Sequence record: PZ445437.1
Origin: a phage
Length of the DNA stretch: 64,000 nucleotides
Reading direction: 5' to 3' (one strand)
The translations under genes and the position numbers were made by a program. A model generated the notes under the pieces. That model did not search any database. It saw nothing but the letters and a program-made list of their open reading frames with translations, and had not been told where the DNA came from. Each line of letters opens with the position of its first letter. Position 1 is the stretch's first letter. This document shows, one piece after another, positions 40,926 to 46,924 of the stretch.

Positions 40926-41428
40926 TTAAAAGTATTTTTTAAAACTCATCATAACTTTATCATCAACATCATTATCAATCTGTGCAACAAGGTAAGATGA
41001 CAGTTCTACTTCTTGTGGCGCGGATTGAACATTATCAGAATTAAGATATTCACGAATCCAAGGATATGGATGTTTAACCGGAGCATCGGTAATTGGGCAT
41101 GGAAGACCACACTGTTTCATACGAGATACAGTTAAGTAATCAATAAAGCTCCACATGCTATTTGTATTTAATCCAGGAACATCGCCATCTTTAAATAAAT
41201 GAACTGCCCAATCTTTTTCTTGGCGGTTAACTTCCATAAAAATATCAACTGCTTCTTGTTCACACTCTTTGGCAATTTTAACCCATTCATCGCCGTCAGT
41301 GCCAAGTTGAAGTTGACGAATAATATATTGGGTGCCTTTAAGGTGAAGCTGTTCATCACGTGCAATGAACTTCATAATCTTGGCATTACCTTCCATGATT
41401 TCCATGTTCTTATGGAAGTTAAAGGTAC
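40926..41428 (-). CDS. nrdB: ribonucleotide reductase small subunit NrdB, exon 2
   Basis: C-terminal NrdB sequence (…MEIMEGNAKIMKFIARDEQLHLKG…); exon start inferred so that exon-1 T + GT gives Cys and intron ends in G. Confidence 0.8.
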
Positions 41429-42517
41429 CGTATGTTCGATTGAGCTCGCTAATTCTCAACCCGTTCTCTTATGAACTGCTGCATGTTACCATGCAGTCCA
41501 GACTATATCACAATCCCGGAGGGATTCTCCCCATTTCGAGTCGCTTGACCCTACGTCCGAAGACTAGTCGTTGAACCTTGTTTTGCAATTGTCGCCGTGC
41601 CATCGTTTATATGTTGATGGTGATAAATCTTTCTTACCACAATATGGACAATTCAATTGAATTCTATTTGGATTTAATTTACATCTGTCATTATGTTTTA
41701 GATAAAATCCAGGACCTTTACCAATGTGACCACAGAAATCACATGTGATTTCTTTTTGTGCAGGATGGGTCCCGTTCTTAACCATTTCTAATGTTTTTGC
41801 TGATGTTCTTTTCTTATGGTCTTCTGATAAGAAATGATGTGAACCGTCATTTACCCGTTTTGATTGAGTTTCTGACTGCATTTTACCACCGCAAAATACA
41901 TGAGTACCTTCTTTTATAGCTGCAATATTGCGTTCTTTAACTTTTGCAATATGCTCAGCTTGTTGAAAATTATGTATACCTAATGCAACTCTATTTAAAT
42001 TAGATTTACGCTGTATTTCACCATCTAAAAGATGAAATGTACCATTTTCTATCTTAGATTTAATAGAGGCAATATTTTTAGCTCGTACTTCAGGGATATT
42101 AAAAATCTGGATTTCTCTAGATTTTGCGGCTTTAGAAGCTAATTCAGAAATTTCTTCAGGAGAATATTTCATTCTAAGCTTTATAGCATGACAAGCCTGG
42201 TAATCTTTTTGAGCTAAATGTATATCATAATGTTCCTGTATAGAAAGGCACATCAAATTATCTAAATCATTATTTTCACGGTTACCGTCTTTATGATGGA
42301 TTTCGTATGTTCTTCCATCAGAATCTTTAGGTATAGGTCCGTTAGCATCTATCCAAATTTTTCTATAGTTCAATTGTGCATCCTCTTAAAAGTATAATCA
42401 TATTTATATTATACTAATTAAAGGTGCAAGCAAAACCTTGGCTGCTAGTTTTCCATAAAGGACTTTCCAGCAATTAAAGGAGTTTTCGATAAACGTTACC
42501 GTTTAAAGGCGCATTTT
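41429..42517 (-). mobile_element. group I self-splicing intron in nrdB carrying an HNH homing endonuclease gene
   Basis: nrdB reading frame interrupted for ~1089 bp; contains 269-aa HNH ORF; boundaries inferred (exon 1 ends in U, intron ends in G), not verified by structure. Confidence 0.7.
41564..42373 (-). CDS. I-TevIII: intron-encoded HNH homing endonuclease, I-TevIII-like (full length)
   Basis: 269-aa ORF with HNH motif EIHHKDGNRENNDLDNL and Cys-rich C-terminal zinc-finger-like region; start is TTG preceded by AAGAGGA SD. Confidence 0.85.
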   Translation of the reverse strand: MNYRKIWIDANGPIPKDSDGRTYEIHHKDGNRENNDLDNLMCLSIQEHYDIHLAQKDYQACHAIKLRMKYSPEEISELASKAAKSREIQIFNIPEVRAKNIASIKSKIENGTFHLLDGEIQRKSNLNRVALGIHNFQQAEHIAKVKERNIAAIKEGTHVFCGGKMQSETQSKRVNDGSHHFLSEDHKKRTSAKTLEMVKNGTHPAQKEITCDFCGHIGKGPGFYLKHNDRCKLNPNRIQLNCPYCGKKDLSPSTYKRWHGDNCKTRFND

Positions 42518-43193
42518 ACGCAAAAGATACATAAAAACGAATAGCTTCCAATGCGTTGATTGCATGGAGGCAAAGGTAAAGAGATTTCATTAAAGCACGT
42601 TTAGCTTCGGCTTCTTGTTTAATAGCTCGGTTTAAACGAAAGACAGCATCAGGAGATTCTTTAGCTAGTTCTACAAATTCTTTAGCGTTTTCCCAATAAC
42701 GAGTTTTAATCAGAACATCATCATAATAACGTCCAATGGATTCAGCACGTTTCATAATAGCTTCATCTAATACAATTTCATCAAATACCTTCGATGGATC
42801 AGTATAAAGATTTCGCATGATATGTGTATATGAACGGCTGTGAATAGTTTCACTAAAAGTCCATGTAGCAACCCATGTATCAAGGCTTGGGTCTGAAATT
42901 AACGACATAAGTACAGCAGACGGCGCACGACCCTGAATGCTATCCAAAAGTGATTGATACTTCAGATTATTAGTAAAAATATTTTGCTGATACTGAGGAA
43001 GCTTATTAAACTGTGCAGCATCCATCATCAAGTTTACTTCTTCAGGACGCCAGAAAAATGATAATTGCTTTTCGGTTAAATCTTCAAAAACTTTATGGCG
43101 TTGAATATCATAACGCGCAATACCAAGACCTGAACCAAAAAACATAGGTTCTTTTAAAACATCAACTGGATTTGTATTAAAAACTGTGCTCAT
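42518..43193 (-). CDS. nrdB: ribonucleotide reductase small subunit NrdB, exon 1
   Basis: N-terminal NrdB sequence ending …AIRFYVSFA then in-frame stop in intron. Confidence 0.85.
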
Positions 43194-43244
43194 AAATTTT
43201 CCACTTAGTTAATAGATAGTGACTCGTCCATGAGTCAAATTATA

Positions 43245-45509
43245 TCATAATTTACAGGATGAACAATCTTCAGCTTTTGGAGTTTCTATTTCATAATCAT
43301 CAGTACCAGAACCATCACGGGTATTATGATAATAGAAATTTTTTCCGCCAAAATACCAAAAATACAAAAGGTCATCAATCATTATTGACATTGGAACCTT
43401 TCCTTTTGGAAAAATCTGTGGGTCATAATATGTATTCGCTGAAGCTGATTGACATACCCATTTCAGCATAATAGCTACCTGCGTAAGATAAGGTTTATTA
43501 CCTTTCTTAGCTAATTTCCATGTATAATCATAGAGGTCTATGTTATGCTCAATATTGGGCACGACTTGATTAAAGGAGCCCTCTTTTGATTCTTTAACAG
43601 AGACTGGTCCACGTGGAGGCTCGATACCGTTTGTACTGTTAGAAACTTGGGAAGATGACTCACATGGCATAAGTGCTGATAATGTGCTATTACGGATGCC
43701 AAAGAGCTTAAGGTCTTCCCGCAGCGACGACCAGTCACAAACGTATTTTGGAGCTGCGATTTGGTCAATCTTTTTATTGTACCAGTCGATAGGTAATTCG
43801 CCTCGAGACCAACGAGTGTCTGAATAATATTCGCAAGGTCCTTTTTCTTTGGCGAGCTTAATGGATGCTTTAATGAGTCCATACTGTAATCTCTCAAATA
43901 GTTCATGTGTTAAATCGTTAGCATCTTCATAAGAAGCAAAGTTACTTGCCAGCCAAGCTGCATAGTTAGTAACACCTACACCAAGGTTTCGACGCTTTTT
44001 AGCTTTTTCTGCTTCAGGAACTGGATATCCTTGGTAATCCAAAAGATTATCAAGAGCACGAACTTGAACTTCTGCTAATTCATTAATTTTATCTTGGTCT
44101 TGCCAATCGAAGTTATCCAGCACAAATGCAGAGAGAGTGCACAATCCAATTTCAGCATCAGGGCTATTCACATCATTTGTTGGAATAGCAATTTCACAGC
44201 ACAAGTTACTCTGACGAATAGGTGCCTTTTCACGAATAAACGGAGTATAGTTATTCGTATTATCAATGAACTGCACATAAATCCTTGCTGTTCCTGAGCG
44301 TTCAGTCATGAGCAATTCAAATAGTTCACGGGCTTTAATGCGCTTTTTACGAATATTAGGGTCTTTTTCTGCTGCTTCGTATAATTCACGGAAACGGTCT
44401 TGGTCTTTAAAATAAGAATAATAAAGCTCGCCACCCATTTCATGCGGACTGAACAAAGTAATGTAATCGTTCTTTCCGAATCGTTCCATCATCAAATCAT
44501 TCAGCTGAACACCATAATCCATATGACGAATGCGGTTTTCTTCTACGCCTTTGTTATTTTTCAAAACGAGAAGATTTTCAACTTCCAAATGCCAAATAGG
44601 ATAATAAGCAGTAGCAGCGCCGCCACGAATTCCACCCTGTGAGCATGATTTAACTGCAGTCTGAAAATGTTTCCAAAAAGGAATAACACCAGTATGACGT
44701 ACTTCACCCATGCCAATCTTAGAACCTTCGGCACGAATCATACCAACATTAATACCAATTCCAGCGCGTTTAGAGATATATTCAACAATTGAAGCGGAAG
44801 CCTTATTGATAGACTTCAATGAATCACCTGCCTCAATAACAACGCATGAACTAAACTGTCGAGTCGGAGTACGACAACCAGCCATAATAGGAGTTGGCAA
44901 TGAAATCTGTCGAGTAGATACTGCTTCATAAAAACGAATAACGTGTTTTAATCTATCAACAGGTTCATCTTGATGCAAGGCCATTCCAATAGTCATAAAT
45001 GCAAACTGTGGAGTTTCATAAATTTGACCAGTGGTTTTATCTTTAACTAGATATTTTTCTTTTAATTGCATCGCCCCGGAATAAGTAAATTCCATATCAC
45101 GCTCGTGCTTAATTTTTGATTCTAAAAATGTAATTTCTTCTGCTGAATATTTTGACAATAATTCAGGGTCATATTTACCTGCATTTACACAATAAGAAAT
45201 ATGGTCAATAAATGAACGCGGTTCATACTGCCCATAAACATGCTTACGAAGAGCAAACATTAAACAACGTGCAGCTACATATTGGTAATCAGGCTCTTCA
45301 ACCGAAATAGAATTCGCAGCGGCCTTAATGACAATAGTCTGAATATCATCAGTTGTCATTCCATCACGGAGATAAGATTTAATATTTTCATATAATTCAT
45401 AAGGATCTACTGATGTTCCTTCAGCTGCCCAAGATAAAACTTTAATAATTTTTTGTGGGTCAAAGCTCTGAGAAACACCACTACTTTTGATAACATTAAT
45501 TAATTGCAT
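43245..45509 (-). CDS. nrdA: ribonucleotide reductase large subunit NrdA
   Basis: 754-aa ORF with class Ia RNR features, same length as T4 NrdA. Confidence 0.96.
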   Translation of the reverse strand: MQLINVIKSSGVSQSFDPQKIIKVLSWAAEGTSVDPYELYENIKSYLRDGMTTDDIQTIVIKAAANSISVEEPDYQYVAARCLMFALRKHVYGQYEPRSFIDHISYCVNAGKYDPELLSKYSAEEITFLESKIKHERDMEFTYSGAMQLKEKYLVKDKTTGQIYETPQFAFMTIGMALHQDEPVDRLKHVIRFYEAVSTRQISLPTPIMAGCRTPTRQFSSCVVIEAGDSLKSINKASASIVEYISKRAGIGINVGMIRAEGSKIGMGEVRHTGVIPFWKHFQTAVKSCSQGGIRGGAATAYYPIWHLEVENLLVLKNNKGVEENRIRHMDYGVQLNDLMMERFGKNDYITLFSPHEMGGELYYSYFKDQDRFRELYEAAEKDPNIRKKRIKARELFELLMTERSGTARIYVQFIDNTNNYTPFIREKAPIRQSNLCCEIAIPTNDVNSPDAEIGLCTLSAFVLDNFDWQDQDKINELAEVQVRALDNLLDYQGYPVPEAEKAKKRRNLGVGVTNYAAWLASNFASYEDANDLTHELFERLQYGLIKASIKLAKEKGPCEYYSDTRWSRGELPIDWYNKKIDQIAAPKYVCDWSSLREDLKLFGIRNSTLSALMPCESSSQVSNSTNGIEPPRGPVSVKESKEGSFNQVVPNIEHNIDLYDYTWKLAKKGNKPYLTQVAIMLKWVCQSASANTYYDPQIFPKGKVPMSIMIDDLLYFWYFGGKNFYYHNTRDGSGTDDYEIETPKAEDCSSCKL

Positions 45510-46063: not shown

Positions 46064-46924
46064 TTACACCGCCATTTTTCCTTTAATTGGCAGATGAGAT
46101 ACATAGTTGTTAAGAACAAAATTATGAGGCTTTGCAAATTGACTCAACCAAAATACCTGCGATTCTGTGTCCCATTCATCAAATTCATCTGGAAATTTTA
46201 ATTGTAATTCGCATAAATCCATAGGTTCACGACGTAAAATTTCTTTACATTGTTCTACGTGATTCATATAGATATGAGTATTACCACCAGAAAATATCAA
46301 ATCTCCAGGAATAAGATTACACATTTTAGCTACAATATGAACTAACGTAGCATATGATGCAATATTAAATGGAAGACCGAGGAAAACATCTACCGAACGT
46401 TGATACCACTGCAAATCTAAATAGCCATTACGCACATTAAACTGATAGAACATATGACAAGGCGGTAATGCCATATATTTAAGTTCAGCTGGATTCCACG
46501 CAGAAACAATTTGACGCCTATCATTTGGCAGTTTTTTAATACGATCAACAACTTCTATAATTTGGTCTACACCGCCAAAATCACGCCACTGTTTTCCATA
46601 AATTGGACCAAGTTCACCACTATGGTATCCTAAATCTTTTGCCTGATTTTCGTAATTTTCATCCCAAACTGTTTTGCCTTGGATTAACGAATCGTGTTGA
46701 ATTAATCGTAAATCATTGACATTTGTGCTTCCCGATAAAAACCATATTAGCTCAGCAATGCATGCATTCCAGGCGAGCTTCTTAGTTGTTACTGCAGGAA
46801 AACCTTTGGTTAAATCCCATCGTAATTTAGTACCGAACAAAGCAATTGTTCCTGTGCCCGTTCGGTCATCGGTTTCATAGCCATTTTCAAAAATGTCTTT
46901 AATTAAATCTTGGTATTGTTTCAT
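46064..46924 (-). CDS. td: thymidylate synthase, uninterrupted (no intron)
   Basis: contiguous 286-aa ORF recognised as T4 TS ([31 protein letters not shown]...); catalytic Cys in PPCH motif. Confidence 0.96.

Follow-up and report, generated by a model that had tools for sequence, protein, structure and literature searches.

The nrdB gene of the Tequatrovirus studied here is almost certainly interrupted by the RB3-type full-length group I intron, with an intact gene for the endonuclease I-TevIII; nothing in the analysis contradicts the reading as the full-length nrdB intron. The element is already known, being another example of an intron that ranks among the best known in phages. The nrdB intron has had textbook status since 1986-1991, RB3 being the phage in which its full-length form was originally described, and its endonuclease has been both purified and characterised; the RB3 nrdB intron with its I-TevIII gene is reportedly treated by Eddy and Gold (1991). 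The DNA analysed, referred to below as the window, is a stretch of 64,000 nucleotides (sequence record PZ445437.1) from a Tequatrovirus without an exact match in the phage collection; over 24 kb, its best matches reach 96.5-96.8% identity with 95-97% of the query covered. The features of the locus are collected in Table 1.

Table 1. Exons, intron, ribozyme helices and expression signals of the nrdB locus (positions in the window)
Feature	Position	Strand	Remarks
nrdB exon 1	42518..43193	-	676 nt = 225 codons + base 1 of junction Cys codon
nrdB exon 2	40926..41428	-	503 nt with stop codon
Group I intron, IA type	41429..42517	-	1089 nt, last base G
Ribozyme 5' half	42374..42521	-	all pairs form in 9 variants
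Ribozyme 3' half	41429..41592	-	Rfam alignment; terminal G 41429
P1	42521-42518/42512-42509	-	U.G pair at splice site
P2	42505-42500/42495-42490	-	3 compensatory pairs
P3	5' strand 42482-42477; 3' strand 41532-41527	-	
P4	42472-42467/42448-42443	-	
P5	42462-42460/42454-42452	-	1 compensatory pair
P6	5' strand 42442-42440; 3' strand 41577-41575	-	
P6a	5' strand 42435-42430; 3' strand 41586-41581	-	
P7	41569-41565/41505-41501	-	
P7.1	41564-41562/41557-41555	-	GUC/GAC hairpin
P7.2	41551-41547/41542-41538	-	GGGUC/GACUC hairpin
P8	41525-41521/41517-41513	-	
P9	41496-41490/41485-41479	-	compensatory change
P9.1	41476-41473/41466-41463	-	
P9.2	41461-41455/41444-41438	-	compensatory changes
Putative I-TevIII operator TTTTGCTTGCACCTTTAATT	42416..42435	-	homing-site look-alike, just upstream of late promoter
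SD-pairing hairpin	42377..42428	-	CCUUU with AGAGG, UGCA with UGCA, in read-in transcripts
T4 late-promoter consensus TATAAATA	42401..42408	-	exact match, in loop of hairpin upstream of ORF
Shine-Dalgarno AAGAGGA	42381..42387	-	7 nt 5' of TTG; overlapped by in-frame TAA 42388-42386
I-TevIII gene	41564..42373	-	269 aa, TTG start, TAG stop 41566-41564, intron positions 145-954
TTG initiation codon of I-TevIII	42371..42373	-	sole canonical start between in-frame TAA and HNH motif
Direct repeat ACAATTG, copy 1	42371..42377	-	contains TTG start; left end-point of ORF-less deletion
Direct repeat ACAATTG, copy 2	41586..41592	-	right end-point of ORF-less deletion

The interrupted nrdB gene

The N-terminal NrdB open reading frame (ORF; 43193..42519, minus strand, 225 residues) is closed by a TAA right after ...AIRFYVSFA. 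Exon 1 ends with ...GCG T at 42518, followed by this in-frame TAA, and exon 2 starts with GT at 41428; the frame break and insert of about 1.09 kb in the original prediction are therefore exact in their coordinates, the insert (42517-41429, minus strand) measuring 1089 nt, with AAAATGCGCC / AAAAUGCGCC as its first letters and ...ACATACG as its last. Joining of the exon 1 T to the exon 2 GT gives a Cys codon, with ...YVSFA-C-TFNFHKNMEIMEGNAK as the protein junction and ...TTTTGCGT/GTACCTTT as the predicted ligated DNA. Removal of the insert leaves an NrdB of 392 aa, residues 3-388 of which align with E. coli NrdB (E = 1.5e-127), the junction Cys being conserved between the two proteins (YVSFAC-TFNF here, YVSFAC-SFAF in E. 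coli). Both exons match the Pfam family Ribonuc_red_sm, exon 1 on profile positions 9-142 (E = 6.6e-20) and exon 2 on positions 174-271 (E = 1.3e-11); by this full-length match and by its similarity to E. coli NrdB chains of solved structure, the product is a class Ia ribonucleotide reductase (RNR) beta subunit. In addition, 80 nt of the spliced junction agree without a gap with the intronless nrdB of phage Sfk20 (79/80), and the continuous junction that had been predicted through the Cys codon is supported by both comparisons: excision restores an uninterrupted host gene, as for a group I intron. A 200-nt query across the spliced junction matched 709 phage records; in 608 of them at least 80% of the query lies together, for the most part, among the records listed, as a single uninterrupted piece.

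At exon 1 position -2 (42519), all 10 intron-containing alleles read GCGT and intronless Sfk20, the one intronless allele in this comparison, reads GCAT, a synonymous Ala codon. The G at -2 pairs with a C in P1, and it may be an intron-linked base that P1 needs and that co-conversion has brought in.

The importance of the locus is mostly one of annotation. nrdB is correctly annotated as one joined CDS, join(43193..42518, 41428..40926) on the minus strand, and the ORF 42373..41564 as I-TevIII from its TTG. Many public records of T4-like genomes list the nrdB exons as two separate NrdB fragments and I-TevIII as a 'hypothetical protein', and in the record of DCP80 nrdB exon 1 carries no annotation at all.

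The ribozyme fold

At the gathering threshold, an Rfam search of the whole window returned no match; for RF00028 the reason is the 810-nt ORF that stands between the halves of the core. The missing match was considered as evidence against an intron and rejected, since an E-value search and the ORF-less copies resolve it. The Rfam check of structure and splice sites proposed with the original prediction gave, by E-value, a sub-cut-off RF00028 match on the 3' half of the intron in the window (35.7 bits, E = 3.6e-7) and, in natural ORF-less copies whose core is more than 90% identical to the present one, 68.6 bits (PD112) and 74.1 bits (DCP80) against a cut-off of 50. The T4 intron, run against the same model for a full-model score, again reached only 35.7 bits because about 300 nt of ORF remain in it. 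Other matches in the E-value search that fell within the ORF (rseX, snoRNAs, HIV GSL3; E = 3.7-8) were put down to chance.

A fold comprising P1, P2, P3, P4, P5, P6, P6a, P7 (the pseudoknot), P7.1, P7.2, P8, P9, P9.1 and P9.2 was drawn by hand and tested on an alignment of nine ORF-deleted intron variants. Its 76 proposed pairs are standard pairs in 683 of 683 cells (100% paired), and compensatory double changes occur in 8 of them (three in P2, two in P9.2 and one each in P5, P7.2 and P9), such as the U-A to C-G change in P7.2 of DCP80; sliding the partners by 1-3 columns produced none, and the observed values were reached in 0 of 500 shuffles. This covariation and the RF00028 scores of the natural ORF-less copies uphold the group I reading, with the core helices P3 to P9 in place, the P3/P7 pseudoknot included. 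The extra helices P7.1 and P7.2 lie between P7 and P3', as in the IA type, and the GenBank record of T4 labels the T4 nrdB intron group IA. P1, in which exon GCGU pairs with intron GCGC, marks the 5' splice site by its U42518.G42512 pair; the final intron base is G41429. The T4 nrdB intron has been described as self-splicing (PMC2790892); with a core identical to that of T4, the present intron would be expected to be so too.

The endonuclease

The 269-aa ORF had been noted for an HNH motif and a Cys-rich C-terminus, and both hold: Pfam HNH_3 matches residues 4-48 (E = 6e-13; motif EIHHKDGNRENNDLDNLMCLSIQEHYDIH), and the C-terminus contains two zinc fingers of the CX2CX12-13HX3C type (residues 211-231 and 242-263) with all eight zinc ligands intact. 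This motif has been defined as part of a DNA-binding and dimerisation domain (PMC1865063). Over the full length, 266 of 269 residues are identical to RB3 I-TevIII, which identifies the two as orthologs and agrees with the earlier suggestion of an intact, RB3-type enzyme. The three substitutions are D23Y, D246G (beside a zinc-finger Cys) and A265T, and S16 and HY03 likewise have Y23. The RB3 enzyme has been obtained in purified form; it is a dimer that cleaves the homing site, and homing was more than 40-fold above that of the defective T4 intron (PMC1865063). The exon sequence that is the counterpart of that in the RB3 work (PMC1865063) lies at about 42531-42533.

The gene's final 8 codons and its stop overlap P6a, P6, J6/7, P7 and P7.1. 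A Pfam match to FlgM (anti-sigma-28 factor) on residues 74-114 (window 42032-42154; 26.2 bits against a cut-off of 25, E = 9e-6) falls on the linker, a charged helical segment, and is probably spurious. Plus-strand ORFs of 42-91 aa inside the intron are unsupported and were treated as spurious.

Start codon and expression signals

The TTG start predicted 7 nt after a strong AAGAGGA Shine-Dalgarno (SD) sequence is confirmed, at 42373-42371 and 42387-42381 respectively. An in-frame TAA lies 5 codons upstream of the TTG, the 4 codons between them (GAG GAT GCA CAA) include no start, and an in-frame ATG does not follow until codon 41, by which point the first HNH histidines have been passed; between the TAA and the HNH motif the search found no alternative start, so that the TTG is the only sensible one. 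The RB3 GenBank record annotates the I-TevIII CDS from the same TTG. The AAGAGGA is invariant in the 10 nrdB-intron variants compared, and the same AAGAGGA-N7-TTG occurs in the 9 others (RB3, T4, S16, HY03, ESh36, AV109 and the ORF-less copies); the TTG start is thus real but already known, being common to RB3, T4 and seven other variants. The annotated 97-codon ORF of T4 begins instead at an out-of-frame ATG 25 nt downstream of the TTG, from which the I-TevIII C-terminal domain is read after the frame-shifting deletion. A review of 2010 gives an 'AUG initiation codon' loosely for all three T4 intron endonucleases, and the UUG is therefore not stressed in the literature consulted (PMC2988022). 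The idea that TTG is a family-wide feature was rejected: viral-metagenome homologs in IMG/VR (31-41% identity) start at ATG.

For the T4 intron endonucleases, a late promoter and a hairpin that sequesters the ribosome-binding site have been documented, and autorepression has been proposed (PMC2988022). The late promoter, the SD hairpin and the operator look-alike are all three present in the window. The late-promoter consensus TATAAATA, of which the window has 18 copies where chance would give 8.8, occurs here at the position that matches the late promoter of the T4 intron ORFs (PMC2988022). The hairpin with its 5' arm folds at -17.9 kcal/mol (z = -3.76; 0 of 200 shuffles fold as well) and a shorter version of it at -9.8 kcal/mol, whereas an RNA resembling the late transcript, which starts downstream of the promoter and lacks the 5' arm, reaches -1.0 kcal/mol (z = +0.84); the SD-pairing stem is invariant across 9 variants. 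The operator proposed for autorepression is a putative one (PMC2988022); its candidate here, TTTTGCTTGCACCTTTAATT, is identical to the homing site TTTTGCGT/GTACCTTTAACT at 17 of 20 positions, a level that 0 of 500 shuffles reached. Scans of the region for sigma-70 promoters and terminators gave nothing above chance.

From these elements a course of events can be proposed. The nrdB pre-mRNA would fold into an IA-type ribozyme in which the U.G pair of P1 (exon GCGU, intron GCGC) sets the 5' splice site, and self-splicing would ligate T42518 to G41428, giving the Cys codon and the 392-aa class Ia RNR beta subunit. In this fold P6a closes the loop that contains the I-TevIII ORF, and the final 8 codons of the gene extend into P6a, P6, J6/7 and P7. 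By analogy with the T4 intron ORFs, the SD would be locked in the hairpin in early and middle transcripts and set free in late transcripts, which would start just downstream of TATAAATA without the 5' arm; translation would then begin at the UUG, 7 nt past AAGAGGA. From what has been published on the RB3 enzyme, to which it is 99% identical, the product would be expected to bind in dimeric form by means of its two zinc fingers. Together the UUG, the hairpin and the homing-site-like operator would hold ribosomes and enzyme low, the share of the UUG in this being conjectural. Splicing and cleavage in the present phage are likewise expected from near-identity to characterised alleles.

The ACAATTG repeat and ORF-less introns

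The I-TevIII ORF is bracketed by a 7-nt direct repeat, ACAATTG. Public phage genomes contain ORF-less nrdB introns of 304 nt (PD112) and 309 nt (DCP80 and CJY920), which have the insertion site and ribozyme of the present intron and retain the late promoter, hairpin and SD, but from which the whole ORF is gone, exactly between the two ACAATTG repeats. Because these signals are still there, the ORF-less introns look derived from the ORF-containing form.

Alternative readings

That the insert is not spliced at all, a free-standing endonuclease gene splitting nrdB into two polypeptides as for some other phage genes, is a reading invited by the many GenBank records that annotate the nrdB halves as separate CDSs and by the in-frame TAA directly after exon 1. 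It is nevertheless extremely unlikely: the group I core is complete and covaries, it is identical to that of the T4 intron, annotated as group IA and described as self-splicing (PMC2790892), and exon 2 has neither an SD nor a start at the junction and takes the opening base of its first codon from the end of exon 1. Another view accepts the intron and takes the I-TevIII allele for an inactive, cryptic pseudogene, which would leave the element unable to move by itself. The three substitutions that distinguish the allele from the RB3 enzyme that was tested, D246G beside a zinc-finger cysteine among them, could be read in this way; gene decay is common, deletions of the T4 type and of the ORF-less type both exist, and the neighbour mobE is absent, so that the intron would not be mobilised in trans. 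The frame is complete, however, with the HNH motif and the eight zinc ligands intact, and introns 99.7-99.8% identical occur in E. coli, Shigella and Salmonella phages, and one 99.6% identical in a Klebsiella phage; such a spread of a near-identical intron over phages of several hosts fits recent transfer, and an inactive allele is accordingly improbable.

It had been suggested that the non-AUG start keeps endonuclease expression low. Premature translation into the core impairs splicing in the case of I-TevI, a reason to exclude ribosomes (PMC2988022, citing Gibb and Edgell 2010), and given this precedent and the overlap of the ORF's 3' end with the catalytic core, any weaker initiation would plausibly be useful and a contribution of the UUG to low expression is reasonable. 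About even chances must be given to the contrary view, that the UUG is a neutral, inherited quirk of the intron lineage and no adaptation limiting I-TevIII: the sampled copies are all close relatives (at least 89% identity), too close for the conservation of the TTG to be informative; the TTG persists in the T4-type defective and the ORF-less copies, where it is useless to the enzyme; the distant homologs at 31-41% identity begin with ATG; and the hairpin and late promoter already account for regulation (PMC2988022). A more elaborate proposal, rather doubtful at present, is that the UUG is a conserved attenuator that acts with the hairpin to keep ribosomes off the core, and that the ACAATTG repeat containing it is a built-in deletion site for the ORF. 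If this were true, deletion at ACAATTG would shed the endonuclease gene precisely and leave a splicing-competent ORF-less intron. Either the attenuator or the deletion-site idea may already be in print.

Genomic context and related introns elsewhere

In the window, nrdA (45509..43245) is followed by 51 nt (43194-43244) and then by nrdB, and these 51 nt contain no mobE, which RB3 and T4 carry between the two genes. mobE is a free-standing HNH endonuclease gene that in T4 mobilises the defective intron in trans. The td gene (thymidylate synthase, 286 aa; 46064-46924, minus strand) is uninterrupted and thus lacks the td intron with I-TevI; downstream of nrdB lie denA, for a GIY-YIG nuclease, and rnlA. 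An intact nrdB intron, with neither mobE nor the td intron, is another data point on the patchy distribution of selfish elements in T-even phages.

The 3' core of the intron, roughly from P7' to P9.2, is 82-96% identical to unannotated DNA in other phages, namely those of Pectobacterium, Klebsiella, Salmonella, Vibrio, Aeromonas and Pseudomonas, and RF00028 scores these matches at 32-42 bits (E = 2e-5 to 2e-8). Two loci were checked, in Pectobacterium phage Slant (810-1531) and Klebsiella phage NDO71 (860-1531); in both the core match comes just after an HNH endonuclease gene, which in NDO71 lies inside a split DNA polymerase gene. Matches of this type look like group I introns of related core that have escaped annotation.

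Comparison with known phage introns

A search with the intron matched 190 phage records, 84 of them at full length; identity is 99.8% to the copies in AV119, AV120, G2285 and vB_ECOLIGBLB0003. The GenBank records of RB3 and T4 both give nrdB as a CDS joined from two pieces with I-TevIII inside. The alignment proposed earlier with the nrdB introns of these two phages places the present copy close to both. RB3 (KM606994; Robbins et al. 2007, PMC1865063) has the gene, insertion site, architecture and SD-N7-TTG found here; its intron is 98.9% identical and measures 1091 nt against 1089 nt, the two differing by two single-base indels, with three amino-acid changes in I-TevIII. Unlike the present phage, RB3 has mobE between nrdA and nrdB.

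The T4 nrdB intron (598 nt) shows 1 mismatch to the present one over its shared bases, and the two share the ribozyme core in full as well as late promoter, hairpin, SD and TTG. T4 lacks 491 nt of the ORF, lost between the imperfect repeats GAAGAaCATA and GAAGAcCATA, with the result that the HNH motif is gone and the frame shifted; its GenBank record describes the I-TevIII copy as defective, with a deletion in the proximal half, and the spread of the T4 intron, with this defunct copy, depends on mobE (PMC2790892). The background to the original prediction, that I-TevIII is truncated in T4 and intact in RB3-type relatives, is in accordance with this, the T4 intron being the present one minus 491 nt in the ORF.

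Similarly to the present intron, the td and nrdD introns of T4, which encode I-TevI and I-TevII, are of the IA type; a peripheral loop houses the endonuclease ORF, there are a late promoter and a hairpin that sequesters the SD, and the ORF runs into the core at its 3' end (PMC2988022). I-TevI and I-TevII, however, are GIY-YIG enzymes encoded in introns of other genes, whereas the enzyme found here is an HNH endonuclease in nrdB.
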